Below, piece by piece: positions 405 through 64,000 of a DNA stretch of 64,000 bases (within the stretch, counting starts at the first letter, position 1; every line of letters begins with the position of its first letter). The notes below the pieces were generated by a model. That model saw only the letters and a program-made list of their open reading frames with translations. It ran no database searches and was not told the origin of the DNA. Location: assembly GCA_963799845.1 (NCBI GenBank), contig CAWCYI010000007.1:96001-160000 (forward strand). The letters are read 5' to 3'. Made by a program: the position numbers and the translations under genes. This stretch comes from an uncultured Nitrososphaerota archaeon. GTDB taxonomy: Archaea; Thermoproteota; Nitrososphaeria; Nitrososphaerales; CADDZS01.

Positions 405-1251
405 ATGTTAGTCAAATTACGAGACGGAACATCATTTGAACTTTCGATAGTTCCGCTCCGGGAAGTGAGGCCTCATGAGGCCACGATTCCAAAACTACTC
501 GATTCTTTACTGAAGGATCTGCGGAGAACTCGGGAACAAAGAGATCCTATAATTATCGATAAGAAGACTCATACTGCCCTAGATGGGATGCACCGCCGCG
601 CAGCATTGAATGCTCTCGGCGCTAGATTTGCAGTATGCGCGGAGTTCGAATACCTGGAAGATTCTGTAAAACTTGAAAGGTGGTTGCGATATTTCATCGC
701 ACCGAGCGAGCACTTTCTTTCAGAGTTAATTTCACTTCTAAAATTAAGGCGGAGTAAGAATTTCAGGAAGGCTGCCAGTGAAGTTGATTCTGAAGAAAGC
801 AAGTTGGCGCTTTTGTCAGCAGCCAGTTCTTATGTAAGTGAGCGACGGTGGAACATCCTCGAAGTATACGACGCACTTGGCCAGGTTGATCAATTGTGCT
901 CGGATTACAAAATAGAGCTTGAATTCACCACAGAGTCCTCTAAATTTGAGACTATTCACATCGGAGTCCGTCCACGTCCTCTACCCCGAGAGACTTACCA
1001 AGAAAGACGTACTCGAAATGGTTCGAGAGAATCGAGTTTTTCCTTGCAAGACGACAAGGCATATTGTTCCGGTCAGACCGATGGGTGTGTTTTTTCCCCT
1101 GAAGAACCTGCAGAATTCGACCAAATCCGAATGTTCTGAAAAGCTTGAGAATATCGTAAATTTAAGTAAGATAGAGATCGAGAGAAGGGAAGTCTGGTAT
1201 GAAGGTAGGAGATACTCCGAGCCCCTCGCAATCTTTCGAAGAAGCAGGTAG
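405..1251 (+). CDS. SerK/SbnI-like ParB/Srx-fold kinase (putative ADP-dependent free serine kinase); apparent 1-nt frameshift at ~951
   Basis: ORF 405-1139 has PHE...DGMHR...RW; ORF 919-1251 has TKKDVLEMV...FPCKTTRH, matching the SerK C-terminal PKTTRH motif; removing one A in GAGACTA (to GAGCTA) joins them. Confidence 0.72.
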
Positions 1252-1519
1252 TGAATTTGCGTTAGTCCGGATTCACGGAAGCCTTGGAAAACTTCCTGAC
1301 GGAAGGAAGGTAGAGGTAGAAAGGGTTCGAGTTCCCGTCAAAGTTCGAGACATTTTGTCTAATCTTTCCAAATCCTTCGGAGTTGAAATCAGAAGAGATA
1401 GCACCCTCGTTCTTGTAAACGGTGTCGAAGCAAACGCCCTGATGGATTTAGACACTACAGTAATCGGAGGCGACGAAGTGTCTCTCATTCCGATGTTTCA
1501 CGGCGGCTCGGAGCAATAG
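1199..1519 (+). CDS. MoaD/ThiS/SAMP-like ubiquitin-fold protein (true start uncertain, probably near 1255); ends GG-SEQ
   Basis: LVLVNGVE...LDTTV..GDEVSLIPMFHGG beta-grasp signature. Confidence 0.88.
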   Translation: MKVGDTPSPSQSFEEAGSEFALVRIHGSLGKLPDGRKVEVERVRVPVKVRDILSNLSKSFGVEIRRDSTLVLVNGVEANALMDLDTTVIGGDEVSLIPMFHGGSEQ

Positions 1520-2104
1520 TTGAAGTTCATAGCTCCATCGTGGGATGAAGTTCTGGCAAAGTCAATAAAGCTCGCAGAGAATATTCGCAAGACAGAGCGA
1601 TTTCAGTTCGATTGCATCATCGGCGTTTCCCGGGGTGGACTTGCGCTGACGAGGATCATGTCAGACCTCCTGGACATCCAGAACGTCATGATTACAAGAT
1701 GCGAATATTACACCGATATCGGTGAAAAAAAGAAAAAGCCTGTCATTACCCAAAAGATTCAAGGAAATATCTCGGGTAGAAATGTCCTTGTTGTTGATGA
1801 TGTGGCAGACACTGGAGAGAGTCTGCTAGTTATCAAGAGTTACTTGGAGTCAAAAAGACCGAATCAGGTAAAGATTGCGACTATTTTCATAAAGCCTTGG
1901 TGTAAGGTAATGCCGGATTATTTTGTGAGCAGAACCGACGCTTGGATCATCTTCCCATGGGAGTATTACGAAGCGATAAAGTCCCTTTCTGCAACTAACA
2001 ACAAAGACATCCTGTCCAAGACGCGTATTCCGCCGAAGTATATCGAAATGCTCTACAAGATGGATAGATCTCTAAGACAGCGATGGAAAAGGACCGCCAA
2101 TTGA
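1520..2104 (+). CDS. Type I phosphoribosyltransferase (purine PRT-like)
   Basis: SRGG, VLVVDDVADTGES PRPP-binding loop, WIIFPWE. Confidence 0.9.
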   Translation: MKFIAPSWDEVLAKSIKLAENIRKTERFQFDCIIGVSRGGLALTRIMSDLLDIQNVMITRCEYYTDIGEKKKKPVITQKIQGNISGRNVLVVDDVADTGESLLVIKSYLESKRPNQVKIATIFIKPWCKVMPDYFVSRTDAWIIFPWEYYEAIKSLSATNNKDILSKTRIPPKYIEMLYKMDRSLRQRWKRTAN

Positions 2105-2677
2105 AAACTGGAGGCTTGCAGGATTTCAAAGCTTTCTGATCATGGCAAATACTGGTCTCGCAATGTAGGGAAAAATGGAGAGACGGTTTGTTTTGCGGCC
2201 GCGTTTTGTTTAAGGGTACGCCAGGATTTCACTAAAATCGCGAAGGGGTTTCCCGAAGGCGTTGTCCTTTGTAATCCTGAAATGATCGCGGGAATAGAAC
2301 ACCTGGAAGCAATCCTGACCCAGACGAAGGAATACTTCGACAGAAATCAGAGACTTGTGAGGAACGGATCTCTGGAAATCTTGATGAGAATTACCTGTCA
2401 AAGACAAATTTCAGAAGCGATTGCCGCCTCTCATATTGAAGACACCGAGAGAGTGGCGATTCTCGGACTAGTTCACTCCGAGAGGGAAATAGAAACTTCT
2501 ATCGAACGTCTCTATTCAATTTGTGAGACCGTTGTGCTAGACAATTCTCTTCTTGAATTGAACAAGGAAAAGGCTGCAAGATTAAAGCGATTTCATCGAT
2601 TGCCGAGCTCGCTGACAATGGATAAGCTTCAAACAGCACTTCAGGAACGATCGATTCTACTAATGTTTTCCAAGTAG
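2101..2677 (+). CDS. cgi121: KEOPS complex subunit Cgi121; probable TTG start at 2101 with a 1-nt frameshift at AGCT ~2133
   Basis: HL...LEILMRITCQRQISEAI motif; frame is open from 2105; TTGA overlap with the upstream stop. Confidence 0.75.
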
Positions 2678-8132: not shown

Positions 8133-9487
8133 TTGCAATCAAACTACTTTGGAAAGAAACACAGTTACGCCGGGATCATATTCAGCATCGCCTTGATCCT
8201 TCTACTGGCTGCGGAGTTTTCATCTTTCGCGGTCGGGGCTTATTACGTGTATAACAGCCCGATCAGCTTTGTCATAGCCGAAACTTTGCACTCTACTACT
8301 GAGACGACTTTGTTAGTTAACGCGACCGGGTTGCAAAGCTCCACGAATAGAACCGTCTGGATTGATCCTGAAGTTTCGGTAGATGCTAATCAGACACCGT
8401 ACATCAATACTGATTCAGGTGTAGTGATCGGTAACGTTACTACGAATTCGACGGGAGACATCTCTACGTCGTTTAGGATCGATTCCTCATCGCTTTCAAA
8501 AATCGAATCTGATGGACAGAGCGTTCATGAAGTATGGGTTGTCGGATTGACTTCGAATTATTCAGGAGCTTCCCCTTCATACAAGGGAATTACCAGCGAC
8601 AGCGAACAGAACTACAGTGCCGAGACACGAGGGGCCGGAGTGACCTTTTTCGTGACGCTGATAACGTTCGATGTTCCGATCAGTTTCAACCTCGGACAGC
8701 TCTTCATTGTCTTGTGGACGATTTACCTCATAATGTTCGCGATGGCGATGAACGGCCCGATGAAAAACATCTGGTCCGCAATCAAGGGCTCGGCATCGAG
8801 GGGGGTTTCTGCACTCTTCGACAACTCTATGCTCGCTATGTTGATTGTTTTTCCTGTAGTAACTTGGTTAACGGTCGCGTTGTCTCTACTGGAACAAGCA
8901 GGAGGAATCTCTACGGGCAATCTGCCACCTGCCGATCCCCTCCTGCAGCTTGTCGAACTTTCAATCGCTCCTCTTCGCGAGGAGTGGGATTCAGGGTTAT
9001 TCCGATTGGGCTGGTCGCGCTTGTTATGCTATTCTCGGCAGGAAGATTCAGAGATGGCCTGATGGCACTTTGGCATCCTTCTAGATATTTGAAGAAGAAC
9101 GATTCTCCGGAACAGTACAAACGACACCTGAAATCAATTTACGTCGCCATCATTTTGAGTGCTATACTATTCGGTCTCGCTCATGTTCTCCTCGGCGCCG
9201 GATGGGGCCCAGGAAAAATACTGAGTGCGGCAGTTGCTGGCCTGGGGCTGGCTGGACTGTACTATCTATACGGGCTCCCGGCGGCGATCCTTCTTCACTG
9301 GTCGATAGATTATTTCTTGGGATTGTTTGATCTTTCTCCATCCCTCCAGAATCTCGGTGGACTGATAACTTTCTACACGCTCGGATTGTCTGTTGCAGGG
9401 TCAATCGTTCTAGTCATGATCCTCGTCAGAAAATTTAGAAACAAAGAATTAGGGTTATTTTCGGATACTGGTTACGGCCACAAATGA
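8133..9487 (+). CDS. CPBP (CAAX/Abi) intramembrane glutamic protease with N-terminal extracytoplasmic domain; apparent frameshift at ~8984
   Basis: APLREE+GFR, FGLAH, AAILLHW; restoring a C (GAGCTG) gives EELGFR. Confidence 0.85.
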
Positions 9488-16973: not shown

Positions 16974-17397
16974 ATGTCATTCATTCCAGACGGGTACTTT
17001 AGAGATCCAGAGGTCTTTCCGGAGAAGGAAGGCGAAACCGGTTCGATCTACATTGAGGCCGCTGACAAAGTCAGTTTGAAGAGAATAAGGGACATTACAT
17101 TCGTCAATGCCAGGGACATTCTGGGAATTATCTACGTCAGCAAGAGCGGGAACACGAAGCTGAAAGTGGCGTGAAAGCCGCGGTGAGCTGGGGAAATTGA
17201 CCGGCGAAGCTTCGACCAACAGCCTCGTGAATCTATTCTCGGCGCGTGTCCTGTCGAAAGAATACACTGATCAGCTTCTTGCGAAGGGGGAAGCCGGCGA
17301 AGAAGGTACCCCGGATCAGTTTGAGGGCCAGAGCATGCCGGAGAACGCCACCGGTGAAGAGCTCGAAGGAACATTAAACGTTGAGGGTGACGTGTGA
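16974..17397 (+). CDS. Conserved hypothetical protein; apparent frameshift at ~17162
   Basis: MSFIPDGYF...KSGNTKLK joins WRESRGELGKLTGEASTNSLVNL if one base is removed from AGCTGAAAG. Confidence 0.65.
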
Positions 17398-26472: not shown

Positions 26473-29400
26473 TTGATGTCATCAGAAGAATACCTCGAAG
26501 ACGATCCACTCTGGTACAAGGACGCAATAATCTATGAGGTCCACGTGAAGGCCTATTGTGATACCGCCGGCGATGGAATTGGTGATTTCAAGGGGCTCAC
26601 CTCGAAGCTCGATTACCTGAAAGACCTCGGGGTTACTACGCTATGGCTTTTGCCATTTTACCCATCACCCTTGAAAGATGACGGGTACGACATTTCTGAT
26701 TATTTTGAAATTCATCCATTTTACGGGGACCTGAAGGATTTCAAGGATTTCATGGCGGAGGCGCACAGAAGGGGTCTCCGGGTTATCACTGAACTCGTGC
26801 TGAATCATACATCGGACCAAAATCCATGGTTTAAGAAATCACGAACCGCTGAGCCGGGATCGAGATGGAGAGATTTCTATGTGTGGAGCGACACCCCTAA
26901 CAAATATACTGAGGCGCGAATAATTTTCAAAGATTTTGAGTCCTCCAACTGGGCGTGGGATAACGTAGCTGAAAGCGTACTACTGGCACAGATTTTACTC
27001 CCACCAGCCGGACTTGAACTTTACAAATGAATTCACGCAAAAGACAATGCTCAGCGTCGTGGACTACTGGCTCAAGATGGGAGTTGACGGCCTGCGACTT
27101 GACGCGGTTCCCTATCTTTACGAAAAAGAGGGCACCAACTGTGAGAATTTGCCGGAAACCCACGAATTTCTAAAGAAACTTAGGGCATTCATTGATTCAG
27201 GTTTCAAGAACAGGATGTTGCTCGCTGAGGCAAATCAGTGGCCCGTTGACGCCGCTCAGTATTTCGGCAATGGAGATGAATGTAACGTCGCATATCATTT
27301 TCCACTGATGCCCCGGATGTTTATGGCGATCCAGATGGAAGACCGGTTCCCGATCATAGATATTCTGGAACAGACGCCTGCAATTCCTGAAAAATGCCAG
27401 TGGGCGCTTTTTTTGAGAAATCACGACGAATTAACACTGGAAATGGTTACAGACGAGGAGCGAGACTACATGTACAGGGTATACGCCAAAGATAGACAGG
27501 CCAGGCTAAACCTAGGAATCAGGAGAAGGCTCGCACCGCTGCTTGGGAACGACCGCAGAAAAATCGAACTCATGAACATTTTGCTCTTCACGCTACCGGG
27601 TACTCCTGTGATCTATTATGGCGATGAAATCGGGATGGGAGATAACTTCTACCTTGGCGATCGAAACGGTGTAAGGACTCCGATGCAGTGGAGCGCCGAC
27701 CTGAATGCCGGGTTTTCGAAGACAAACCCGCAAAAACTGTACCTCCCCGTCATAATTGAACCCCTGTATCATTACGAAGCTATCAATGTAGAAAATCAAC
27801 AAAACGATTCCTCCTCTCTGCTTTGGTGGATGAAGAGGGTGATCGCGATGAGAAAGGGCTTCAAGGCTTTCAGCAGGGGTTCGATCGAGTTTCTCTATCC
27901 GACAAACACGAAAATTCTGGCTTTTACTCGAAGACTCGGAGATGAGATTCTACTGATTACTGCAAATCTCTCCGGCAGGACCCAGGCAACCGAGCTGGAT
28001 CTCTCAAAACTCTCGGATCGTAGGCCGGTTGACGTTTTTGGCGGAGCAAATTTTCCTCAGATCGGAAAAACTGGATATCGACTCACCTTTGCCCCCTACG
28101 GCTACTACATTTTCAACATGAAATTAGAGCGGCGGACCGAGGAGGTAAATCAACCCTCTCAGATCCCCATTCTTGAACTTAGAAGGAAACTCCAAGATAT
28201 GTTCAATGGCAGGGCAAAGGACAAGCTTGAGACAGAAGTTCTTCCTCAATATCTAAGATCGAACAGATGGTTTGGCGGAAAGGGCAGAACGATAGAACAG
28301 ACCCGAATCAGGGAGGTGATCACTTTCTGGGATGAACCAACAACGGGAAATTCTCAACTGCTTGTTTTCGCAGATATTTACTACACTGAAGGTCTCCCGG
28401 AGTCCTATTTTCTTCCCATGAGCTACTCCAGCGTTGACATTTCGGAGCAATTGAAGGATGCCAACCGAAGATCAATCGTCGCCAAAGTGAGCATCGACAA
28501 GAACACTCCTGGTGTCCTATTCGACGCAGTCTACGACCAATCGTTTAGATCTCGACTGCTGGACTTCATTACTTTTGGGAAAACGGCTTCCGGTTCGCAG
28601 AGCGAAATCGTCGGAATCAAATCTGCTGACGATCTTACTTCTGACAAGATTTCTCTTAAATCTACAGTTACCGGCGCAGATCAGAGCAATACTTCCGTCG
28701 TGTATGAAGACAAGTTCATACTAAAATTCCTGCGTAGAATCGAAGAAGGCCCGAATCCAGAAGTAGAAATCGAAGCTGCGCTGATAAAAAACAAGTTCGA
28801 GGAAATTCCTCGTCTGATGGGCAGTGTGGTATTCAAGGCTCCGGCCGCTGAAGCCGCAACCGTGGCCATTCTAGAGGAGTACATCAGAAATGAGGGTGAT
28901 GCCTGGGCTCTTTTTCACGGGCAGTTCGAGCGATTCCTGGACGATGTTCTTTCTGCGAAAATACTTCCAGAATCTTCCCTGAATTCTTCTATTCTTGAGC
29001 TTGCTCAGGAAGAACTTCCCGAATCTGTTCTTGAGGAATTAGGGCAACCATTCGACGATTGGATAATGTTGCTGGGGAAGAGGACAGGCGAATTTCACTT
29101 AGCACTACTCAAGGAAGCGGACGATCCTAATTTCAAGCCCGAACCCTTCGGTTACCTGGAACAGGTAGCAGTCGCCCAATCAATGACGAGTTATTCGAAT
29201 CGGATCTTTCAACAGTGCCGCAGTTCTGTAAATCTGAGCCCCGCAGCGGCCCGAGAGTTGGGCGAGATACTGTCACATCAGCAGGAGATTGTCACAAGAT
29301 TTGCAGAACTGAAGAAAGTCAAACTTGACTGCATGAGATCCCGCGTTCATGGAGACTATCACCTTGCGCAGGTCCTTTTTACTGGAAAAGACTTTGTTTT

Positions 29401-43858: not shown

Positions 43859-45002
43859 TCAGTCTAAACTTGTCAAAAAGCGGGTAAATCGGTCCAGGCC
43901 GATCTCGAGTTCTTCAAGGCCTCCCGAGAACGAGATTCGTACTCGAGCCTCTCCTGATCGGCCAAACGTCGTCCCAGGAAGCAGAGCTACATTTTATTTT
44001 AAGTAATTGCTTGCAAAATTCCGTCGCCGACATCTCGAGGTTCTTCAACTTCGGAAAAGCGTAGAACGCTCCCTGAATCTCGTTGCACTCGACCCTAGGA
44101 ATTGTCTCCAATTTTTCAAGTAGAATCTTTCTTTTCAACGAATATTCCTCTTTGATCTCGGCAATGATTTTGTCTCCGTTGTCCAGAGCATACGCAGAGG
44201 CTCTGGATTAACGGAGGGAAGCAGGTAATTGTGTTTTCCAGAAATTTGTTGATCAGACGAACAACGCGTTCGGAAGCGACAGCGTAACCTGCCCTCCAGT
44301 CTGTCATCGAATAAGCTCTTCGATAGGCTGAAAATGGAAATCACTTTTTCTGGTTTTGACTCCAGAGATCCCACTGCAAAATGCGATGCGCCATCATAGA
44401 CCAGATCCTCGTATGCGTCGTCAGAAATTATGTAGATTCCTTTGTCTGAACAAAATTCGTAGAGCTCGTTCAATTCTCCCTTGGAAAGAATTCGCCCAGT
44501 CGGATTAGAAGGAGAGTTTACTATTATCGTCCTCGTTTTTTCCGTGATTTTTCTCTTGATCTCTTCAATATCAAGTGAGAAATCTCCATTTCAGACGGTA
44601 AGGAACTGGATTTCCTCCAGAAATGATTACGGGCTCTGCGTAAAAATAACCACGATCCGGGACTAATGCTTCATAGCCCGGTTCAGTGACGGCGAAGAGC
44701 GAAGCGTAGACAGCCAGCTTAGTTGTAAGAAAAATCGTTTCGCCAAGTTCCGCTCTAATTCCATTTTTCCTCCTAACTTTTCGACAAATAGCTTCGCGAA
44801 TCTCCCTCGTACCATACGACGGAACATAATGAACCTGCCCCGATTTCATGCTCGCATAAGCGACTTCTTCGATTTCTGAAGACGTATTGGAGGAGGGATC
44901 TCCTATTGCCAATGAGATCACGTTTTCCCCTTTCGAACGTTTCTCTAGAACTAGATTTACGATCTCAAGAGAAGGGGAACATTCGATCATGGAAAGATAC
45001 AT
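43859..45002 (-). pseudogene. Class I/II (aspartate-type) PLP aminotransferase broken by ~4 frameshifts
   Basis: Fragments GDP, NSPSNPTG, SDDAYE, SLSKS/MTDWRAGY, GAFYAF, LLPGTTFG, VRISF lie in different frames. Confidence 0.8.
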
Positions 45003-48260: not shown

Positions 48261-48626
48261 ATGTTAGAAACAAGTGATCATGTTCGGATTCTCGTCACTC
48301 TGAAGACATGGGGAATTTTGTCGGAAAAACGAATATCAGACCTTTCTAAGATGTCGCACCGCAGATGCAGCGTGAATCTAGAGAGACTAGCCCAGGATCG
48401 CATGGTAAAACTGGTGGAAAATAATAGCTCGTCCAGGACCTACCGCATTACTGGTTCCGGTCTTAACTATCTAGACAAAATAAGACAGAAAGACAGACTC
48501 GTAAATACCGATCTCAGTTCGTCGTCTCTTTTTTCAATATACTTTCATCCCAGAAATTCGGAATTATCTCCTTCGGCTGGATTTCCCATCCTTGACGGAG
48601 CAGGAGACTCCTTGAACTGCGAATAA
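48261..48626 (+). CDS. Winged helix-turn-helix protein
   Basis: LERLAQDRMV...YRITGSGLNYL. Confidence 0.65.
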   Translation: MLETSDHVRILVTLKTWGILSEKRISDLSKMSHRRCSVNLERLAQDRMVKLVENNSSSRTYRITGSGLNYLDKIRQKDRLVNTDLSSSSLFSIYFHPRNSELSPSAGFPILDGAGDSLNCE

Positions 48627-52142: not shown

Positions 52143-52270
52143 GATAGTGCATGCTCGTTTTGTCGATTCTTGGAATGTTAAGAGACCTTTTTCCCTTGAT
52201 TCTAATAATACTATACCTTAATGTCCTAACGATATTTCCGAATGGAACGAACCTCAGAGGGAAGAAAGAA

Positions 52271-53540
52271 TCATTGTCGAGTGAAGGATTGCGAATAACG
52301 CTTCTGTCTTTCAGTCAGCTTGTCTATTTTGAGATCGAATCCTTTCAGACAATAATTTGTTACGAGTTGGTCGATTTCTTCGGGGAACAAGAGCAGTTTA
52401 GATTTTTTCGTTTGAAGCTCTTTGCGATGAACCAGTAAATAGTAAATCGATAGAAGTTGGTTTGCAAACGAGATCTGCATTATCTCGGGGGGATGCCCAT
52501 CTGCTGCGACCAGATTGATAACTCGCCCCTGACATAACAGATAAAGTGACTTGCCCTTCAGATCTATCTTCGTGATATTTCTCCGGACGTTTTCGATTTT
52601 GTTTCCAATTCGATATAGATCGGCCGCGTCGATTTCCTGATCAAAATGTCCGACATTTCCCATAATAGCTCCGTCCTTCATCAGTCTGAAGTGCTCAGAG
52701 CCGAGGATACGAATTTGACCCGTACAGGTCAGGAAAACATCTCCGATTTTTGCAGCCTCCATCATCGGCTTAACTTGAAAACCGTCCAGCTTTGCTTCAA
52801 GCGCCTTCAATGCGTCTACTTCCGTAATGATAGTATTCGCGCCCAGTCCTCTCGCTCGCTCCGCAACGCCCCTGCCGACCCACCCATAGCCTGCTATGAC
52901 AGCAGTCTTGCCTGCGAGGAGGAGCCCGGTTGCTCTCATAAGCCCATCAATCGCGCTTTGACCAGTGCCGTACTTGTTGTCGAAGATGTGTTTTGTCCTT
53001 GCCTCGTTAACGGGTATCGCGGGATACCTTAACTTTCCTTTTCCGTCCAGAGCCTCTCAGTCGCAAAGTTCCTGATGTGGTCTCATCGGTACCACCAATG
53101 CAGCTTTTTGAATTTGCAGTGGCATAAGCAACGTGAAGCTCCCCACCATCGTCGATGATCAGGTCAGGTTTCGACGTTGCAGCAGATCTGATGTGCTCAA
53201 TGTATTCGCTTGAGGTTTCATCGCTCCGAGCGGAGACGGATACGCCTTCAGTTTTCAGAAAGGCCGCGATATCATCCTGGCTAGATAACGGATTTGCCGC
53301 CACTAGATTAATTTCGAGTCCAAACGAGCGCAGAGAGCTAATCAGAACCGCGGTCTCTTTTGAAACGTGAAGGCAAGCGGCAAGACGTAATCCTTGGAAT
53401 GGGTTTTTTCTGGAAAGCAATTGGGATCGCAAATAATCTTCCGCGAGACGGAATACCGGCATGTGGGATTCCGCCCATTCGAACGAGGCCTTTCCTAATT
53501 CGACGCGATCGTCGGCTTCGGTTGACAATTGGCATCGCAA
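52271..53540 (-). CDS. ahcY: Adenosylhomocysteinase; apparent frameshift at ~53053
   Basis: ACLHVSKETAVL, DDGG, DETTSG, then KHIFDNKYGTGQS, GYGWVGRG, NVGHFD, GHP. Confidence 0.93.
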
Positions 53541-53677
53541 ACTAACACAGTGCTATTAAGAATACCAAAAGGGGGAACATCACTAGTTAGTTTGTAAATG
53601 GAGATTCAACCCCAAGATCTTGTTGCACTCTAACATTCGTAATTGATAAAAGTAGAAGCCGCGTTTGACGCGTTGAC

Positions 53678-53926
53678 ATGTCCGACGAACCCGAACTCCA
53701 GAAGACTTTGAAAAGACTGACTTGGCAGTACGAGAACTGCCTCTCGTGCGTATTTTTTCATCCGAATGATGTGCTCAACGCCGATCTTTTCGAAAGAGGC
53801 ATGTGCACCCACCCGAAGATGAAGCCCCTCGAACTACTCGTTTCCGGTCGGGATTGGTGCAATCTATTCAAGGAAATCCCGCAGAACACAATCGATGCCC
53901 TGCAGGCGCACGCATCGAAGGGATGA
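53678..53926 (+). CDS. Small 4-Cys protein with HiPIP-like motif
   Basis: NCLSCVFF-x14-C-x16-WCNLF. Confidence 0.55.
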   Translation: MSDEPELQKTLKRLTWQYENCLSCVFFHPNDVLNADLFERGMCTHPKMKPLELLVSGRDWCNLFKEIPQNTIDALQAHASKG

Positions 53927-53930
53927 TGGA

Positions 53931-54476
53931 TCATTTGTCGTAGTGGACTAGCGAAACCAAGTCGTATTTCTCGAGTTTGTCTCTCCCCTTCAGAAAGTCT
54001 AGCTCGACAAGAAAAGCCAGCCCGGCGACTCTCCCTCCCATTTTTTCCACGAGCTTAGCCGTCGCCTCCGCTGTTCCCCCAGTTGCGAGCAGATCGTCCA
54101 CGATAGCGATCCGCTGGCCATTCTTGATCGCGTCGCTGTGCATCTCCACCAATTCCGTGCCGTATTCGAGCGAATACTGGACAGACAATTTTTTGAAAGG
54201 AAGTTTTCCCCTTTTTCTAGCGGGGACGAAACCTGTCCTTAACTTGTAGGCGATCGGCGCCCCGATTATGAAACCGCGGGCTTCAACTCCAACTACTGCG
54301 TCGATTCTCTTCTTGGCAAAATGCCTCGTTAGAACGTCTATTACGGATCTAAATGCATCGGCGTCCATAAGGAGCGTCGTGATATCTATGAAATTGACTC
54401 CTCTTTTCGGCCAGTTAGGGATTACCCGGAGTTTGGCCTTGAGATATGATTCTGTAGAATGTCGACTTTTCTGCAC
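53931..54476 (-). CDS. apt: Adenine phosphoribosyltransferase
   Basis: EARGF, RKRGKLP, YSLEYG, VDDLLATGGT. Confidence 0.96.
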   Translation of the reverse strand: MQKSRHSTESYLKAKLRVIPNWPKRGVNFIDITTLLMDADAFRSVIDVLTRHFAKKRIDAVVGVEARGFIIGAPIAYKLRTGFVPARKRGKLPFKKLSVQYSLEYGTELVEMHSDAIKNGQRIAIVDDLLATGGTAEATAKLVEKMGGRVAGLAFLVELDFLKGRDKLEKYDLVSLVHYDK

Positions 54477-54522
54477 GCGAGTCCGCTTTCTGACCTTGTA
54501 TCTAAGAATTAAGACCGGACTA

Positions 54523-55332
54523 TCAAATCATTGCGCCTGAGAGAGCTCGGCCGCAGTCGCACGTTCTCACCTCTGGAAGCGAATCAATCGCACTCAGGAC
54601 AAGCCTCTTTGCGTTCTCCGCATTTTTTCGCATGGTCTCGGAAACTTCTGCCGCCGTCACGGGCTTGTCAGCCCAAACATCGTAGTCAGTAACCATCGAG
54701 ATCGACGCATAACAGATCTGCGCCTCCCGGGCCAAGATGCATTCTGGATATAGGGTCATCCCCACAATGTCTGCTCCCCATTGACGGAATAACTTGGATT
54801 CAGATCGCGTCGAGAATCTCGGGCCTTCAATACAGACATAAGTCGCCTCTCCGCTAGCCTCGATCGCCATTTTCATCGCTGACTCGGAGAGAACTCTTCT
54901 GATCTGGGAGCAGAACGGATCTGCCGAGGAGACATGGGCAACCTGGGCCCCATCGAAAAAAGTATCCGCCCGATTCTTCGTCCTGTCGATGAACTGGTCT
55001 GGAAATACAAACCCACCCGGCTTCAGGTTTTCCCGAAGACTACCGACTGATGAAACGCTGATGATTCTTTCTACCCCAATTTGTTTTAGAGCATAGATGT
55101 TGGCGCGATAGTTGATTCCGTGCGGTGGAATGGAGTGATCCCTACCGTGTCTCGGGATGAACGCGACACTTTTTCCGTTGTGCCGTCCGATTGACAAAAA
55201 CGGAGACGGAGAGCCGTACGGCGTTGAAACTTTGACATCCTTTGAGTCATGAAAAAGCTTCGGGTCGTAGACTCCGGTTCCCCCGATGATTGCAAGTTTC
55301 GCAGTCTCTCTCGGCGGATCGACTAGACTCAT
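54523..55332 (-). CDS. mtnP: S-methyl-5'-thioadenosine phosphorylase
   Basis: IIGGTG, TPYG, PRHG, EGPRFST, VGMT, VTDYD. Confidence 0.95.
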   Translation of the reverse strand: MSLVDPPRETAKLAIIGGTGVYDPKLFHDSKDVKVSTPYGSPSPFLSIGRHNGKSVAFIPRHGRDHSIPPHGINYRANIYALKQIGVERIISVSSVGSLRENLKPGGFVFPDQFIDRTKNRADTFFDGAQVAHVSSADPFCSQIRRVLSESAMKMAIEASGEATYVCIEGPRFSTRSESKLFRQWGADIVGMTLYPECILAREAQICYASISMVTDYDVWADKPVTAAEVSETMRKNAENAKRLVLSAIDSLPEVRTCDCGRALSGAMI

Positions 55333-55470
55333 AATTCTAATTGCAGCTCGATTCCTTTGTAAAACACTTTAGAATTACCGGTTTACTTATATTGGAAATT
55401 CGACCTGATTCAATGGGCCCTAGCTGGTTTCATTCGGATAAGAAAGCATGGAGAAGGGATTGAATTCGAT

Positions 55471-55785
55471 TTGTCAATCGATAAACAATACATCGCGCGA
55501 ACCATAAAGTGGCAAAACACGATTCTCCTAAACATCTGCGACGAGGAATTGCTCGGAACCACTGTGAAGGGAGGCAAGGTGGAAATGGAGATTTCTCGCG
55601 ATTATTTCGGAGGCGACAAGGTCAGCGAGGATCAAGCCATCAATCTCGTGAGGGTATCGAGCATAATCAATCTTGCAGGTACCAGGATCGTGGAGAAAGT
55701 ATTGGACAAGAAACTGGCTTCGGAACGGGCAGTCAAGAAAGTTGGTCCCGTTTCCTTCCTTATGATCTACAAATTCTCAAACTAA
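55471..55785 (+). CDS. DUF424 family protein
   Basis: ICDEELLG, YFGG, IINLAG. Confidence 0.85.
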   Translation: MSIDKQYIARTIKWQNTILLNICDEELLGTTVKGGKVEMEISRDYFGGDKVSEDQAINLVRVSSIINLAGTRIVEKVLDKKLASERAVKKVGPVSFLMIYKFSN

Positions 55786-56124
55786 TCCTGATTTGACGGG
55801 ATACTGGATTGCGAGCTATCGCGAGTTTTTCCGAATTTTCACCTCGTTGATAGTTATGTCGACCGGGAAGAACCTGAGGCTCGTCTTTCAATAAATTGTG
55901 TTATTTTGCATTGAAGGGCTCAAAGTCCCTCAATTTGTCTATGGACCTCTGTGTCTATTTCAAATAGGAGCGATCATTCCTTTATTAAAAAATAAACTTT
56001 CGAAATTCATACTACCTATAGGTCGATCGAAGACAATATCGATGACTTCGGCCTTTTCTTGATCAAACCACATGAGTTGTATAGACTAGAAGTATCCTCG
56101 TAGTAACCCTTTTTCCTTTGAACG

Positions 56125-57012
56125 TTGATTATCGAGGTTAAGGTTCGGATATTTTCGATTTTGAAGTACGTGCGAGAAAGAGACGAAGCCGGGGAAGCTG
56201 ACCTCCAGAAGTTCCACAGGGAGGCGGAAAGAGTCGACAAGAGAGACAGAGTGATTCTGAAGAATGAAGAAGAGCGATCTGTCTTCGAAGAAGTTTTTGA
56301 TCGAAAAACCCTGATGATACTTTACGATCTTTCGAATAACAACGCTTTTTCCTATCTGAACGGGGTAATAAGCTCAGGCAAGGAAGCAAGAGTCTACTGG
56401 GGTGTTAAATCAGACGGAACCGATGTCGCTGTCAAAATCTATCTTGTCGCGTCATCCGATTACAAGAAACGAATGCAGTACGTCGAGGGAGACCCCAGAT
56501 TTAACAAGATTCGCAGAGACAGTAGAGGAATCGCCGAACTGTGGGCTCGGAAGGAGTACATTAACTTGAAACAGGCTTTTGATGCGGGAGCTCCGGTACC
56601 ACAACCCCTGAACTTTCAGGGTAATGTCGTCGTGATGCAGTTTATTGGAACCGGCGGGATACCAGCTCCCCGCCTGATTGATGCTAAAGCCACCAAGGCC
56701 GATTACAAAGTAGTTATCCGCTCGATGCAGTTGATTTACCAGAAGGCCGAGCTAGTCCACTCTGACCTATCGGAATATAACATAATGAAGCTGGATGGAA
56801 AGATCATTCTCTTTGATTTTGGTTCAGCCGTCTCTACCAGACATCCATCTGCAGAGGAATTTCTGAAGCGGGACATCACCAACGTAAACAAGTTCTTTGA
56901 GAAACGTGGGATTCGGGTTGATGACGAAGCGAAACTCCTAGCCAGAATTCAGGGAAGCTCTAAGAATAAGGAGGAGAAATTCGATCTTGAAGAGGAGAAT
57001 TTGAGAATTTGA
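56125..57012 (+). CDS. rio1: RIO1 serine kinase
   Basis: SSGKEARVY, AVKIY, WARKE, VHSDLSEYN, FDFG. Confidence 0.95.
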   Translation: MIIEVKVRIFSILKYVRERDEAGEADLQKFHREAERVDKRDRVILKNEEERSVFEEVFDRKTLMILYDLSNNNAFSYLNGVISSGKEARVYWGVKSDGTDVAVKIYLVASSDYKKRMQYVEGDPRFNKIRRDSRGIAELWARKEYINLKQAFDAGAPVPQPLNFQGNVVVMQFIGTGGIPAPRLIDAKATKADYKVVIRSMQLIYQKAELVHSDLSEYNIMKLDGKIILFDFGSAVSTRHPSAEEFLKRDITNVNKFFEKRGIRVDDEAKLLARIQGSSKNKEEKFDLEEENLRI

Positions 57013-57590
57013 GCTCTGAACAAGTTGTCAGAGTCCCACTGGAAAGAGTGGGAGCTCTCGTCGGGAAGGAGGGCGTCGTGAAAACCGAAATCGAAAGAAG
57101 GTGCGGAGTAACGCTTGAAATTGATGGCAAGACCGGCGAGGCGAGGATCAGTTACCAGCCGGAAGCCTTGATCGAAGCTAATCCTTTCAAGGCATACGAC
57201 ATTGTTTCCGCGATAGCTAGAGGCTTTTCCCCTCAGCGGGCATTCTCGCTGCTTCAGGAGGAACGGATTTTGACGCTGATAGATCTGAGGGAATATGCGG
57301 GCAAATCCGAAAATGCAATGATCAGAATTCGCAGTCGACTTATCGGAACAGAGGGAAAGGCTAGGAAGATAATAGAACAGCTCACCCAGTCGGAAATTTC
57401 GATCTACGGACATACAGTGGCGATAATAGGAGATCCGGAGGAGTCGAAGATAGCGAAGGAAGCCATCGATAAGCTCGCCAAGGGCGGAACTCACAAATCG
57501 ACGTACGAGATGCTCCAAAAGTACAGGACGAAACAAAAACTCGACCGGATGCAGCTCTGGGAAGCTCAGAGACCTCCGGAAGAAAATTAA
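57009..57590 (+). CDS. KH-domain rRNA-processing protein (Dim2/Pno1)
   Basis: VGKEG, ARGFSP, RLIGTEGKAR. Confidence 0.93.
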   Translation: MSSEQVVRVPLERVGALVGKEGVVKTEIERRCGVTLEIDGKTGEARISYQPEALIEANPFKAYDIVSAIARGFSPQRAFSLLQEERILTLIDLREYAGKSENAMIRIRSRLIGTEGKARKIIEQLTQSEISIYGHTVAIIGDPEESKIAKEAIDKLAKGGTHKSTYEMLQKYRTKQKLDRMQLWEAQRPPEEN

Positions 57591-57707
57591 AACTCAATTT
57601 TCGCCAGGAAAGAGCGGGAATATTTTTATCAGACGCCAATAGAGCCTCTGCGTCGTCCTGTTGTTTTGTCTTATCAGAGAAAATTTCGAGGTTAGTTCGG
57701 AGTATGT

Positions 57708-59387
57708 TTGAAATTGGTTGCTAATCAGCAGAAGGTTACTTACTCGGAAATTTCTCCGAGCGAATTTTTCTATCGCAATCGCGATCTCGCCGGTTTCAGC
57801 AATCCGTCAAGGGCTCTCTACACATCAGTCAGAGAGCTGGTCGAAAACAGTCTGGATGCCTGCGAGCAGTTTTCGATTCTTCCTGAGATTACTGTAAAGA
57901 TTGAGTTAGCGCCGGAAGGCACGAAAGCTGGGGAGCAGGTAGCCTACGTGCTTACGGTCAAGGACAACGGCCCCGGGATTGAGGCAAAGCACCTCCCCAA
58001 CGCGTTTGGAAGAGTCTTTTACGGCTCAAAATACAAGCTGAAGCAGTCGCGCGGGATGTTCGGGATGGGCGGGACGATGGCGATTCTTTACGCCCAGATC
58101 ACGACCAATAGGCCAGTCACTATTTCTTCGTGTTCTGACGGTAAAACCAGTCACGTCTTGGACATGCTGATTGACATCCAGGAGAACAAGCCGGTGATTC
58201 TGAAGCACGACACGCAACCCTCGGATGGAACCGGGACGTCGGTTCAGCTGACTCTGATGGGCGACTATTTCCGAGCCGGGCAGAAAATTCAGGACTATTT
58301 CAAGCAAACAGCCCTGGTTACTCCGTACGCGAACATCAATCTGATCGATCCCGAAACAAATGTCATTTCGTATCACAGAGGTACGAATGCAGTACCCCCG
58401 CCGCCCGCCGAGACCTTACCACATCCCTACGGTATCGATGTTGAGGCGCTCCGTCGTTTGATCAAACAAACAATCGATCCGAATCTGGTAAAGTTCATGA
58501 CAAATAATTTCCACAGGGTTGGTGAGAGAACCGCCGAGAAATTTCTAGCGTTTGCTGGCTTTGAGAAATCGAGAAAACCCAAGACTCTTGGAAATGAAGA
58601 CGTCGTAACTTTTGTGAACGCGCTGCACCAATTTGACGAGTTTCTTTCGCCGGACGCGTCCTGCCTTTCTCCTCTGGGTGAGGAAATTATGCAGGCAGGC
58701 ATCATGAAGGAGCTCGCCCCCGAATTCGTGGCGATGTGCGTCAGACCGCCCTCGGCTTACTCGGGTTTCCCGTTCATCGTAGAGGTTGGACTGGCTTATG
58801 GTGGAAGCTTGATTGAACCAGGAATCAGGTTGCTTCGCTTCGCCAACAGAATCCCGCTTCTGTATGATGAGGCTAACGATGTTGCTTACCGTATAATAAA
58901 GGAGGAGATAGACTGGAAACGGTACAAGATTCCTCAGGATGCGCCGATTGCAATAATCACGCACGTTTGTTCCACTAAAGTGCCCTACAAGACCGTGGGG
59001 AAAGAGTACCTTGCCGACCGGCCAGAACTTGAAAGGGAGATAAAGAACGCCTCGAGGGAAGTGCTTCGGAAACTCGCGACCTATGTTTCGAAAAAGGGCT
59101 CGATGGAATTCCAGAAGAAGAGAATGAATATTTACGGAAAGTACTTGCCTTTGATCGCGAAATTTTCGACTGAGCTCTCGGGTAACAAAAAACCTCCAAG
59201 CTACAAGAAACTGCTTGGAAACGAAGTCGCAATAGAACCTGGCTCTGAATCAGAGCAGGCGATAAGCGATGAGACTGCAAAGGAAGTGGCTGACACCGTA
59301 GCGAAGGATCAAGAATCGCGATCGAAAAAGAAGGTAAAGGTTGAAAATGACCAGCAAAGCCTCGAAGAATTTGGCGACAGCTCGTAG
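57708..59387 (+). CDS. top6B: DNA topoisomerase VI subunit B
   Basis: ELVENSLDA, DNGPG, QSRGMFGMG, RFANRIPL. Confidence 0.97.
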   Translation: MKLVANQQKVTYSEISPSEFFYRNRDLAGFSNPSRALYTSVRELVENSLDACEQFSILPEITVKIELAPEGTKAGEQVAYVLTVKDNGPGIEAKHLPNAFGRVFYGSKYKLKQSRGMFGMGGTMAILYAQITTNRPVTISSCSDGKTSHVLDMLIDIQENKPVILKHDTQPSDGTGTSVQLTLMGDYFRAGQKIQDYFKQTALVTPYANINLIDPETNVISYHRGTNAVPPPPAETLPHPYGIDVEALRRLIKQTIDPNLVKFMTNNFHRVGERTAEKFLAFAGFEKSRKPKTLGNEDVVTFVNALHQFDEFLSPDASCLSPLGEEIMQAGIMKELAPEFVAMCVRPPSAYSGFPFIVEVGLAYGGSLIEPGIRLLRFANRIPLLYDEANDVAYRIIKEEIDWKRYKIPQDAPIAIITHVCSTKVPYKTVGKEYLADRPELEREIKNASREVLRKLATYVSKKGSMEFQKKRMNIYGKYLPLIAKFSTELSGNKKPPSYKKLLGNEVAIEPGSESEQAISDETAKEVADTVAKDQESRSKKKVKVENDQQSLEEFGDSS

Positions 59388-60444
59388 GGAACAGCTCCTC
59401 AAAGAGTTGAAAGATCTCGGTACGAAGACATACCAAGATCTCGACCAGTCGAAGTTTCCGGAGTTCCTCTTCCCAAGCAGATCTGTCAGCAACATCGTCT
59501 ACGATCCGAAGCTGAAGCAGTATATTCTCGACAAAGTTAACGTCAAGCGATCCGCCGGAAACATCAAGCACATTCGTCCGTTTACCCAGATGCTCTGGCT
59601 AGCGTACTTCGCAGACAGGTTGGTCGAGCAGGGAAAGACGAGCACTCTCAGGGATGCGTACTACTCGTCTCAAGCGGATGCCATGGAGTTTGTCGACCAG
59701 GCAGAGTCAGACGAAATCATCACTGACCTTGAAACCGTGCTTTCGAGGGCTAGAGAAGAGTTCAAGATTTACCCAGAAGAGCGAAGTGCCATTTTTGGCG
59801 ACCTTACGATTGAATATACTGTCCCGCGATTTGAGGGTCGGCGCCTAAATCTTTCGTCTCATCCAGACGGATACTTAATCGGCCCCTCGCTCAGCACGGC
59901 AGAGTTCGTCGACACCTCGGCCGAAATGATCATCGCCGTAGAGAAGGGAGGAATATTCACCAGATTTGTGGAAGAACAAGTCGAGAAAAAGTACAAGGCG
60001 ATCCTCATCGACACTTCCGGCCAGGCTCCGAGATCCACGAGATACATGTTGAAGCGGTTGAACAAGGAGTTAAATCTCCCCGTTTATGTTATGACCGATG
60101 GCGACGTATACGGAGAGCATATTGCGATGGTGATAATTAGCGGAAGCGCCAATGCGGCTCACCTTCGAGACCTGACGGTTCCAACGGCAAAATGGATCGG
60201 AGTCTGGGCGAGCGATATCGTGAAGTACAAACTGCCGACCGACAAGATGACCGAAGCGGACGTAAAGAGAGCTCAGGAGCTAAAGAAAGATCCGAGATAT
60301 CACGGCGGAGTCTGGCAGAGAGAGCTCGACATTTTCCTCAAGATTAAGCGAAAGAGTGAGCTTGAAGCGTTCTCGAAATACGGACTTACTTTCATAGTGG
60401 ACAATTACCTGAAAGAGAAGATGGAAGAAGCCAAGTCGCTCTAG
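59341..60444 (+). CDS. top6A: DNA topoisomerase VI subunit A
   Basis: TLRDAYY, EKGG, DGDVYG Toprim, KSELEAF. Confidence 0.97.
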   Translation: MKMTSKASKNLATARREQLLKELKDLGTKTYQDLDQSKFPEFLFPSRSVSNIVYDPKLKQYILDKVNVKRSAGNIKHIRPFTQMLWLAYFADRLVEQGKTSTLRDAYYSSQADAMEFVDQAESDEIITDLETVLSRAREEFKIYPEERSAIFGDLTIEYTVPRFEGRRLNLSSHPDGYLIGPSLSTAEFVDTSAEMIIAVEKGGIFTRFVEEQVEKKYKAILIDTSGQAPRSTRYMLKRLNKELNLPVYVMTDGDVYGEHIAMVIISGSANAAHLRDLTVPTAKWIGVWASDIVKYKLPTDKMTEADVKRAQELKKDPRYHGGVWQRELDIFLKIKRKSELEAFSKYGLTFIVDNYLKEKMEEAKSL

Positions 60445-60671
60445 TACTTTCGATTTCACGAAAATAGAACACTACAAAGATTACGACGGCGCAAAAATCT
60501 TGGCCGCGCTGTTTGACTAGATATCACTGCTTTATTCCAAGACTCCCCCACATTTTTATGCCGAAAAATGAAAAATGCGGTAACAGGAATCCTACTCATA
60601 AATTAGGAAAATGTTATTATGGTTGAATCTAGGATACAGGAAATAATCGCGTTTCTGGAAGTTCAAGAGTC

Positions 60672-60875
60672 ATGTCGAAGGCACTTAGCACCTCACAGCA
60701 GCGTATTAGCGCCCTGTTGCGCGTTATAGCGCTAGTTTGCATCTTGCTCGGAGGAGTTTTCGCCTATGATATTTACCAGACAACTTTGATTCCACAGCTG
60801 GTCCCGATCTTCTATTTCATGGCTGCTCTGATGATTTTTGTTGGAGCAGTTGTCTTAATAGCCCGCTTCGATTAA
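60672..60875 (+). CDS. Small two-TM membrane protein
   Basis: Two hydrophobic helices. Confidence 0.6.
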   Translation: MSKALSTSQQRISALLRVIALVCILLGGVFAYDIYQTTLIPQLVPIFYFMAALMIFVGAVVLIARFD

Positions 60876-60989
60876 TTCCGGTTGCGTGCCTAATCCTTTG
60901 CGTTGCACTTCGTCTTGATGTTGTGTATACTCTTCATTACACCGATCAACTCCAAAGTTTAAAGCCAAGCGATTGCAACTAACATTATC

Positions 60990-61268
60990 ATGACCCAGAA
61001 AAGGAAGAGCAGGGGGAGGTCCAAAGGCGGTAAGGGGAGCTCCGGAACTGTTCAATGCAGTAATTGCGGTAGACAAACTCCAATTGACAAGGCAAAAAAG
61101 ATGACATCCCGGGTAAGCCTTGTTGAACCTATGCTTGCAAGAGAATTGAGGCAGGCAGGTGCTTATATCGCGTCCCCCGTGACAATCAAGTATTATTGTG
61201 TGTCATGTGCTGTGCACTACGGCATGGTCAAAGTTAGGGCCAAGGCCGAGAGAAGACAAGCATTCTAG
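60990..61268 (+). CDS. rps26e: 30S ribosomal protein S26e
   Basis: KRKSRGR, CSNCG..PIDKAK, YCVSCAVH. Confidence 0.96.
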   Translation: MTQKRKSRGRSKGGKGSSGTVQCSNCGRQTPIDKAKKMTSRVSLVEPMLARELRQAGAYIASPVTIKYYCVSCAVHYGMVKVRAKAERRQAF

Positions 61269-61355
61269 CACATTCATTAGCGGAGAGTGTCTACATCACT
61301 CCCAAAATTACGTTTTTCGCTAACAGTCTACTAGGCCGGGATACCTGTCTGCGAA

Positions 61356-61929
61356 TTACTGGGATCTGAGTTTTTTCAAAATTGCAACGTAACGTTGCAG
61401 GAACGTGACAAAGGCGATGATCAGAACTATGATGACTCCAATCCATACAAATCCGGCGATCGAAAATACTATGAGAACCAGTAGCCTTTCGGCTCGTTCT
61501 CCTACGCCGATTCCCGAGAGAGAGACTCCGAGCGAGTCTCCCTTAGCTCTAGTATCAGCTTACCATTAGTGAAAAACTGAGTGCAAGCAGAACGAAAATA
61601 GGTGAGGTATAACCCGCATAGATTATTCCGGAGTAGACTGCGACTTCGGCGACTCTGTCAAGAGTTGAATCGTTGAAAGATCCTGATTTTGACACAAGGT
61701 GATTTACACGCGCCACCGCCCCGTCGAGAACGTCGAAGAGTCCAGAGATTATGAGAGAAGATGCTCCTAGGTACGGTTGTTCAGGTCTCAGGGCGTAAAA
61801 GATTCCTGCAATTAGAGAGAAAAGAAATCCGATGAAAGTCCAGAAGGTTGGTGAAAGTCCGGTGCGACCAAGAGATCTGCCAATTGAATTTACAACAGGC
61901 TCAATTTGGCTTCTGATCTTGTTCAGTAC
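61356..61929 (-). CDS. CDP-alcohol phosphatidyltransferase (archaetidylinositol-phosphate synthase-like), missed by the ORF track; apparent frameshift at ~61556
   Basis: Manual translation: LNKIR...DVLDGAVAR...GSFNDSTLDR...LMVS|YTRAKG...GERAER. Confidence 0.88.
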
Positions 61930-62053
61930 CGTGATACATCGACCCCAGAATTCTTTCTACATGCCCAACATTGGTATGCTTTTATAGAGTGCGCGTTCAG
62001 CTTTGAATTTGCCTAACAATTCAAAGAATTCGTCAGGAGCTAGATAGAGAAAT

Positions 62054-62257
62054 TTGGGCAAAATCGGGAAAGGCGTTAGTTGCTCGGTAACCGGTTGCAA
62101 GAATCTTGCTGAAAGATCTATCAGCAGAGACCAGATAGGCGGGAGCGGCCTGAGCGTTTCTGGCGATCGTAGAGTGTACCTTTGTCACGAGCATTACAAG
62201 GTCTGGAAAAAAGCTACAAAGAAAGATCGAGATCTAGATAGAGTCCGTTTCAAGTAA
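62054..62257 (+). CDS. Conserved small Zn-binding protein upstream of thrS
   Basis: CSVTGC...YLCHEHYK. Confidence 0.7.
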   Translation: MGKIGKGVSCSVTGCKNLAERSISRDQIGGSGLSVSGDRRVYLCHEHYKVWKKATKKDRDLDRVRFK

Positions 62258-62316
62258 AGCCATTCTGTTTAAAGCTTTGTTGAGCAATTAGTAGGAATCC
62301 ACGCGGTAGATCAGAA

Positions 62317-64000
62317 TTGAGAGTTCTTCAGCTTCATTGCGATGAGGTAGAATACAAGCCGATAAAGAAGGAGATCCCGAATGCGGAGGAAACTTCTACC
62401 GAGACGAGAATCATTCGCGTATGCATTCTACTTCTCATCAGCGTTGAAGAGAGAGATGACGACAGCGTTGTTGAACAGTGTATTTCAGCGGTTGAAAAGG
62501 CTCAGGCGCAATTAAAGTGCGACTCGTTTGTTATTTATCCTTACGCTCACTTGAGTAGCCATCTCGCATCGCCGAAAATCGCGAAAGAAATATTGGGCAC
62601 ACTCGAAAAACGAGTGGAGGGACTCGGCTATTCGGTTCACCATGTTCCTTTTGGATGGAACAAGTCTCTCTCCATCAAAGTGAAAGGTCATCCTCTTGCT
62701 GAGCAGTCGAAGGTCTTCGAACCAAAGATCATGGAGGGCGAAGCTCCCGAAAAGAAAGAAGACGCCAAGGAGATTCTCTCTGCAGCACTGAAAGCCGAGG
62801 ATAACCTAAGATCGCAGTGGTTCATCATAGATCTCGAAGGGAACCTGACACCGATCTCTGAATACAACTTTGCGAAAAGTAAGACTCTTGAGAAGCTGAA
62901 AAATTACGAGACTGCCAAGGTAAGAGCAGTCCAACAAATTCCGCCTCATGTGAACTTTATGAAAAAACTTGGTTTGGTGGATTACGAACCAGCCTCCGAC
63001 CCCGGCAACATGCGGTACTATCCCAAGGGGAGAATGATCAAATCTCTCCTCGAGCGGTACGTTACTCAGAGGGTCCAGGAGTATGGAGGCGTTGAAGTGG
63101 AAACACCTATCATGTACGACCTGGAACATCCCAGTCTTGCGAGCTATCTCAATCGCTTTCCAGCGAGGCAATACTTGGTAAAGTCAGATGAGAAGGAGTA
63201 TTTTCTTCGGTTTGCTGCGTGTTTTGGGCAGTTTTTGATAGCTGAAGGACCTTCAGCTGACATACAAACATCTCCCGCTAAAGCTGTACGAGCTCACTAG
63301 GTATTCCTTTCGTCGTGAAAAAAGTGGAGAACTTATAGGATTACGGCGGCTCCGAGCGTTCACAATGCCGGATTGCCATGCGATAGTTCGCGACATCGAT
63401 CAGGCGAGAGAAGAGTTTCCTAAGAGATTTGAGCTGTCCCAAAGCGTCCTGAAAGAAATTGGTTTCGATGAAGATGATTACGAACTAGCGATCAGATTCA
63501 CTGAGGAATTTTACGGTGAAAACAAGCAGTTCATCGCTTCAATTATTAGAAAGCATGGTAGACCGGCGCTAGTTGAAATGTGGAGGGAGAGATTTTTCTA
63601 TTTCGTTTTGAAGTGGGAGTTCAACTTCATCGACAATCTGGATAAGGCCTCGGCTCTTTCGACTGACCAGATAGATATCGAAAACGCCCAACGTTATGGG
63701 ATTACGTTTGTTGATGAGACCGGCAAAAAGCAGACGCCTATGATTTTGCATAATTCTCCATCTGGGGCAATTGAGCGAGATATCTTCGGGCTGCTAGAGA
63801 AAGCGGGGCGCATGCAGTCAGAGGGAAAAATCGCGACGCTACCTGTCTGGTTGAGCCCCACCCAGATTAGATTGTTACCCGTGTCCCAGAAGTTCCTCGA
63901 CGCGTGCAAGTTGGTTTCGGAAGATTTCGAAACCTCTCATATCCGAGTTGACATCGATGACCGCGAAGAAAGCGTCGGTAAGAGAATTCGCGAAGCGGAG
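62317..64000 (+). CDS. thrS: Threonine--tRNA ligase (archaeal type, N-terminal editing domain); apparent frameshift at ~63244; truncated by window end
   Basis: MRVLQLH, YPYAHLS, PFGWNK, GHPLAE, LRFAACFGQF; continues FRREKSGEL.GLRRLRAFTMPDCH. Confidence 0.95.

Follow-up and report, generated by a model that had tools for sequence, protein, structure and literature searches.

Do the broken genes in this stretch of archaeal DNA belong to the organism, or only to its assembly? The window analysed here is the whole stretch of 64,000 nucleotides (nt) at positions 96001-160000 of contig C7 of an uncultured Nitrososphaerota genome (G000), and it holds a series of genes that are each interrupted by a one-base frameshift, most of them in or beside the palindrome AGCT. 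A preliminary description of the window had proposed that all isolated frameshifts lie at AGCT, that the genes are intact and that the genome is methylated at this motif. Our results show that the frameshifts at the sites compared with short-read data are assembly errors, and native-DNA long reads of a genome modified at AGCT are their probable cause. The G000 assembly comprises 4.60 Mb in 9 contigs (largest 2.14 Mb, GC content 47%), with a rated completeness of 86.7% and contamination of 4.9%. Judging from sequence, the source lineage belongs to the Thaumarchaeota/Nitrososphaerota, order Nitrososphaerales; the trehalose synthase TreS of the window is 92%, 79% and 56% identical to proteins of Nitrososphaerales archaea and 74% identical to that of a Thaumarchaeota archaeon.

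The most direct evidence comes from a different sequencing technology. Three public soil-metagenome runs from one study (X1, X2 and X3) contained 0.81, 0.42 and 0.18 of the sampled words, respectively, and contigs from X1 and X2 were compared with the window over positions 44001-64000. At their loose ends these contigs, which look to be of the same strain as the window, retain remnants of transposase adaptors, which we take to be of Tn5 type and thus the mark of a short-read library. Contigs of 1.7-3.2 kb left out one base at each site for which they are listed and differed from the window in no other letter. In this way the extra base was found to be absent at five AGCT sites (44313, 48497, 53053, 61556 and 63244), the second of which was missing from the list of the preliminary description. 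The window sites at AGCT are given below, with the surplus base in square brackets and the depth of the contigs that leave it out after X1 or X2.

949..953, plus strand: AG[A]CT, extra A splitting the open reading frames (ORFs) 405-1139 and 919-1251 (nucleotide alignment with relative G004)
2130..2135, plus strand: AGCTTT, possible extra T, 5' of the conserved Cgi121 region
8983..8985, plus strand: one base missing in a CPBP/Rce1-like gene, PF02517 (four relatives one base longer; tblastn frame change)
17158..17162, plus strand: one surplus base after AGCT, hypothetical gene (four relatives without one base)
26967..26971, plus strand: extra base of the AGCT[G]A type splitting a TreS-Mak fusion gene (five aligned relatives without one base)
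44313..44317, minus strand: T[A]AGCT, extra base in an aminotransferase gene (X1 3.9; absent in two relatives)
48495..48499, plus strand: AG[A]CT, extra base at 48497 (X1 5.86, X2 2.9)
53051..53055, minus strand: AGC[C]T, extra base at 53053 splitting ahcY (X1 6.3, X2 4.18)
61556..61560, minus strand: T[C]AGCT, on the coding strand AGCT[G]A, in a CDP-alcohol transferase gene (X1 6.61)
63240..63244, plus strand: AGCT[G]A, extra G splitting thrS (X1 6.61, X2 4.6, both at 63244)

Removal of the bases that the contigs lack gave full ORFs of 426 amino acids (aa) for AhcY, 199 aa for the CDP-alcohol transferase locus and at least 572 aa for ThrRS, whose repaired frame extends past the end of the window. 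Since the contigs lack the extra bases and the full ORFs are restored, the frameshifts arose in the assembly and not in the organism, whose thrS, ahcY and CDP-alcohol transferase genes are intact. The earlier claim of intact genes was thus borne out at 44313, 53053, 61556 and 63244, and the proposed change of AGCTA to AGCTGA was matched to the letter by the contigs at 61556 and 63244, read on the coding strand. The repair suggested for ahcY (AGCCT to AGCT) agrees with both X1 and X2; a different placement of this indel, taken from alignments with relatives, was overturned by the same contigs. In total, 100 AGCT occur in the 44001-64000 region, and they account for 6 of its 7 differences from near-identical contigs (P about 6e-9). 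A row at 49564, seen in X2 only and lying in a dispersed repeat, was set aside, and rows at 61932 and 61943 derive from a divergent X2 contig with many substitutions. The repeat, found at 49503-49691 and 55959-56069, is short and dispersed; in relative G003 it is matched by over 25 different contigs at 72-87% identity, and short-read contigs pile up and diverge there (depth 18.6, with loose ends).

These comparisons bear on the possibility that the indels are real, either as true pseudogenes or as the mark of a co-existing strain that differs only by AGCT-linked indels. The indels are present in the assembly consensus, and a completeness of only 86.7% could be read in the same sense. However, had they been real they would have persisted in the short-read data, and at five window sites they are missing from contigs identical to the window at every other letter over kilobases. 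Real indels would also disrupt essential genes, thrS and ahcY among them; the preliminary description had judged pseudogenisation of thrS implausible, and the extra G is left out by X1, X2 and four relatives. Moreover, relatives are intact at every tested site, and extrapolation to the whole genome would require about 500 broken genes. We therefore regard real indels as highly improbable.

The relatives extend the comparison to the rest of the window. The closest ones (G001-G006) are fragmented metagenome-assembled genomes of the same genus; all ORFs of their corresponding loci were translated and matched to the window by tblastn, followed by nucleotide alignments. Rows of G001 are present in some of the alignments, and no claim depends on G001 alone. 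Intact ORFs of the relatives switch frame in the window at 950-952, 8980-8987, 17140-17165, 26972-26976, 44580-44592, 53028-53056 and 61550-61558, and nucleotide alignments revealed a surplus of one base at 951, 17160, 26969, 44313, 44585, 53053, 61556 and 63242 and a deficit of one base at 8984. Consequently, the frameshifts proposed at 949, 17158, 26967, 44313, 53053, 61556 and 63244 stand as single-base breaks at AGCT, and the intact ORFs of the relatives strongly imply that the genes at the remaining window sites are intact as well. For 8983-8985 the deficit is real, but the missing column holds either C or A in relatives and AGCT is restored only if the base is C, which is plausible.

The individual genes differ in how closely the break can be placed. 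At 949-953, two relatives have intact ORFs, 282 and 288 aa long, that correspond to two window frames joining at 950-952. At 17158-17162 the frame of four relatives' ORFs changes at 17140-17165, and the extra base lies within AAGCTGAAAG, where it is ambiguous which base is the surplus one. Adjoining this broken gene, a clear match to Arcadin-1, which partners with the actin-like cytoskeleton of archaea, was detected at 17401-17757 (PF18653, E 3e-16). In treS, ORFs of nine relatives change frame at 26972-26976, and matches to alpha-amylase positions 5-149 and 317-445 flank the break on either side. Read through the break, the gene at 26473-29833 encodes a TreS-maltokinase fusion with alpha-amylase, Malt_amylase_C and Mak_N_cap domains, and the corresponding open frames in relatives are 1067-1135 aa long. 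The ORFs of five relatives change frame at 61556. Pfam matched the ThrRS editing domain before the thrS break and the class-II core and anticodon domains after it, both AdoHcyase halves, the aminotransferase fragments and the Rce1-like/CPBP gene. There was no Pfam match for the ORFs at 405-1248 or for the 67-aa CDP-alcohol transferase fragment, so the names "SerK-like" and CDP-alcohol transferase are those of the preliminary description alone. At 2130-2135 relatives offer no comparison, because the N-terminus of Cgi121 is not conserved in them. Homology begins at 2147, yet no in-frame ATG, GTG or TTG is found before 2282, and removal of one base within 2105-2136 would connect this region with the frame of an ATG at 2083, which makes an extra base plausible from the reading frames; the CGI-121 Pfam score of the gene (21.3 bits) is under the family cut-off.

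Three further differences in the window are a break and an indel away from AGCT and a pair of substitutions.

44580..44592, minus strand: TTT[C]AGAC, second aminotransferase break, at 44585 (two relatives without one base; tblastn frame change)
45545, plus strand: G[A]ATCT, surplus A in the third codon of a putative cyclase gene, PF04199 (X1 4.29; G003)
60066..60071, plus strand: two substitutions, window AGTT where the contigs have AGCT (60070) and window G where they have A (60066) (X1 and X2)

The break at 44585 is known from relatives only. The indel at 45545 sits in GATC, and G003 is one base shorter there. The substitutions at 60066 and 60070 are 4 nt apart and represent either a substitution-type error at AGCT, with an apparent C-to-T miscall, or a strain polymorphism; both are synonymous (Lys and Leu), and so polymorphism stays among the readings.

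The window alone holds 274 AGCT, about 2.6% of its positions at 6 nt per site. To place the breaks in the context of the whole genome, about 1.05 Mb of same-genus DNA was used, including 80 further contigs of G004 and G003, and its 3268 ORFs were searched by tblastn against all of G000. This returned 111 frame-changing pairs of high-scoring segments at 81 places, and at each place every possible one-base repair was scored against the relative's protein. After 13 rows were dropped (antisense or duplicate rows, identical repeat copies, a score gain below 50 or a tie range above 6 nt), 68 frameshift sites were left, 54 of the insertion type and 14 of the deletion type, in an assessable region of 610,907 nt that makes up 13.3% of the genome. 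AGCT was found no more than 2 nt from the best-repair range at 30 of the 68, whereas controls in which the same windows were moved by 45-300 nt (36 shifts) gave a mean of 2.7 and a maximum of 7. With one position of slack and motif-creating repairs included, the count rose to 38 of 68 (about 56%) against 7.1 in the controls (maximum 13), and the genome-wide enrichment of indels at AGCT, for which the preliminary description had proposed a test, is thus present. None of the other 15 palindromic 4-mers was enriched at the 68 breaks except CTAG, which is created by 13 repairs against 4.2 expected; this excess is a by-product of ambiguous AGCT[G]AG repairs.

Among 435 occurrences of AGCTGA in the assessable region, 22 coincide with an insertion-type break, and the 12 one-letter variants of its AGCT part together give 1 in 4292 (Fisher P 2e-22), each variant having 0-1 events in 204-457 occurrences. 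Since the one-letter variants are nearly free of events, all four letters of AGCT are needed. The break rate of AGCTGA is 5.1%, compared with 0-1.8% for other AGCTNN words, and a variety of error forms is seen across both strands: AGCT+G, C+AGCT, AG+A+CT, AGC+C+T and A+AGCT. Taken together, the errors are mostly insertions, with some deletions and probably substitutions, in or beside AGCT. Indels in homopolymers of long-read assemblies likewise make false pseudogenes and lower completeness estimates. The breaks in G000 differ from these in that they are not in homopolymers, insertions and deletions stand at 54:14, and a palindromic motif rather than run length predicts them.

A homology-free screen based on overlapping long ORFs of the same strand in different frames was abandoned: among 1108 junctions it caught only 3 confirmed window breaks and was swamped by stop-codon words and insertion-sequence copies, with a weak signal at GCTGA (81 insertion-type against 40 deletion-type junctions). 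The copies belong to an insertion sequence of about 1.08 kb that is present in about 18 identical copies in G000, including the following.

C1:144362-145437, insertion-sequence copy
C1:73906-74981, insertion-sequence copy
C4:212529-213604, insertion-sequence copy
C4:859398-860473, insertion-sequence copy
about 14 more copies elsewhere in G000

The element has two ORFs whose overlap falls at a -1 junction on a TTTAAAAAAG run; this resembles a programmed transposase frameshift and, unlike the AGCT breaks, is a real and conserved feature.

Programmed frameshifting, or some unusual decoding at AGCTGA, might be considered for the AGCT breaks too, as the same six-letter word occurs at many of them. 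However, the extra base is missing in the DNA of the short-read contigs, and relatives without it have a single frame at every tested site. The breaks also share no slippery sequence or downstream structure and comprise both strands and both indel types, and this explanation is barely credible.

A bias of the basecaller or polisher toward errors in AGCT-containing words, with no DNA modification involved, deserves more weight. What the contigs establish is the artefact and not its cause, and an excess that peaks at one extended word, AGCTGA, is what a k-mer bias could give. Against it are the dependence on exactly the 4-bp palindrome and the occurrence of at least five error forms on both strands. 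AGCT is moreover common in every genome, so such a bias would presumably have been noticed and trained away, and the motif coincides with a methylation motif documented for the phylum. Context bias is therefore an unlikely explanation, though one to be kept in mind.

We favor instead the explanation that the assembly contains systematic one-base consensus errors at AGCT because it was built from native-DNA long reads of an AGCT-modified genome, which we consider probable on circumstantial grounds. The source would be long reads, as suggested by 9 contigs with a largest one of 2.1 Mb obtained from soil. AGCT would be modified in the organism, most likely as N4-methylcytosine (m4C) introduced by a methyltransferase of the N4/N6 family, and the modified base would distort the read-out around AGCT so that the consensus gains or loses one base, most commonly so that AGCT is written with GA after it in place of a single purine. 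Methylation of AGCT is the best explanation because all four letters are required, because both strands show errors of several kinds, because the lineage is Nitrososphaerales and because m4C at AGCT is documented in the phylum.

The last point, which the preliminary description had put forward, is borne out by three papers. Ca. Nitrosoarchaeum BD3 was reported to carry m4C at 96% of AGCT sites and N6-methyladenine at 98% of GATC sites, a motif pair also mentioned for Ca. Nitrosomarinus catalina, together with a methyltransferase that shares 45.9% identity with M.Mma5219II (PMC6329791), and AGCT was modified at 82-91% in both Thaumarchaeota metagenome-assembled genomes of a second study (PMC8919816). 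A table in a third lists M.NspBD3I, M.Nca01I and M.TarMY3I as AGCT m4C enzymes, and GTAC m4C enzymes for methanogens (PMC11033074). G000 shares phylum and 4-bp motif with these systems, and it has an N4/N6-family homologue of an enzyme conserved in small-genome relatives. The described hosts are aquatic, Nitrosopumilus-like ammonia oxidisers with genomes of about 1.5 Mb, studied by the kinetics of single-molecule real-time sequencing, whereas G000 is a 4.6-Mb soil member of the Nitrososphaerales whose methylation would be read from error footprints alone. A profile search for AmoA (PF12942) in the 4.6-Mb assembly gave no match; the control likewise matched in no genome, so the negative is uninformative and at most a lead. 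On the error side, modification is described as inducing nanopore read errors in PMC11610603; there and in bioRxiv 10.64898/2026.01.14.699587 the errors also fall at a short methyltransferase word, are absent from orthogonal data and are specific to the organism, but they are mismatches or substitutions, unlike the mostly one-base, frame-breaking insertions at AGCT (presumed m4C) in this archaeon. The available sections of PMC11649196 contain nothing specific on motif-linked indels.

The preliminary description had also suggested a search for the methyltransferase. Profile searches of G000 returned 12 matches to PF01555 (the N4/N6 family) and two of the D12 class on contig C5, which would bear on accompanying N6-methyladenine at GATC, and no match to the C5-methylase family PF00145; none of the enzymes was assigned to AGCT. 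The lack of a C5-methylase match and the apparent C-to-T miscall at one AGCT bear only indirectly on N4 methylation of the motif. PF01555 genes with an SPPY motif are located at C6:1380725-1381639 and C8:12140-12904. A PF01555 enzyme of about 258 aa is conserved, one copy each, in four small-genome relatives of the order (G019, G023, G047 and G053), and we infer that this may be the AGCT enzyme. Its best match in G000 is at C4:1427652-1428320 on the minus strand, with 43-44% identity. The assembled sequence of this G000 gene is in turn interrupted at an AGCTGA by a break of the insertion type. An attempt to assign AGCT specificity to one G000 methyltransferase through order-wide searches with two SPPY-motif enzymes, NCBIfam and PDB was indecisive throughout.

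Several observations weigh against methylated AGCT as the cause of the errors or against its reach. Methylation-linked nanopore errors have been published mostly as substitutions, whereas insertions dominate here (54 of 68), in a frameshift screen that detects indels only. The long-read origin of the assembly is read from its contiguity alone, and X1-X3 may include the source sample of the window, which makes them independent in technology and not in source. NCBIfam and PDB matches of the G000 methyltransferases are generic and below curated cut-offs, and their nearest solved relatives are adenine enzymes. GATC, the partner motif in thaumarchaeal methylomes, leaves no footprint at the 68 breaks (8 against 9.6 expected), with one window indel lying at GATC; as a second error motif it was suggestive by eye at several sites, and the flat control test led to its rejection. 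Finally, AGCT does not account for every break. The claim that all isolated frameshifts lie there fails in the window, where 44585 and 45545 are elsewhere and 10 of 12 breaks are at AGCT, and in the genome, where about 30 of 68 sites are not at AGCT by mapping. This remainder is partly localisation slack and partly real: among 33 rows scored as not near AGCT, 10 have AGCT 3-8 nt away, and the mapping misplaced 53053 by 3 nt.

Among the sites away from AGCT, the palindrome GTAC was found at 4 of 30 against 0.4 expected (nominal P 8e-4, uncorrected for 136 words), and it may be a second, weaker error motif. The four sites are as follows.

G000:C6:697579, GTAC-linked break
G000:C4:1751247, GTAC-linked break
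G000:C6:749357, GTAC-linked break
G000:C6:982540, GTAC-linked break

The type of error and the motif of methylation are each of a known kind, and the interest of the finding is mainly practical. Extrapolating from 68 breaks in the assessable 13.3%, around 500 genes of G000 look broken without being so; these false breaks probably lower the estimated completeness of 86.7% and would feed false pseudogenes into databases. As a four-letter word predicts the errors, short-read or motif-aware polishing can correct them, and the pattern could in turn flag modification motifs in long-read genomes whose raw signal is gone. For the organisms themselves, the circumstantial case for AGCT methylation now reaches from aquatic ammonia oxidisers to soil Nitrososphaerales. 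We put forward only tentatively, as a doubtful extension, that the error footprint shows a large-genome soil member of the order modifying AGCT, and possibly GTAC too, as marine and freshwater ammonia oxidisers do, or else that the mark is bulkier than m4C. A bulkier mark would explain why insertions outnumber substitutions, and a shared use of AGCT would make its methylation an ancient trait of the whole class.

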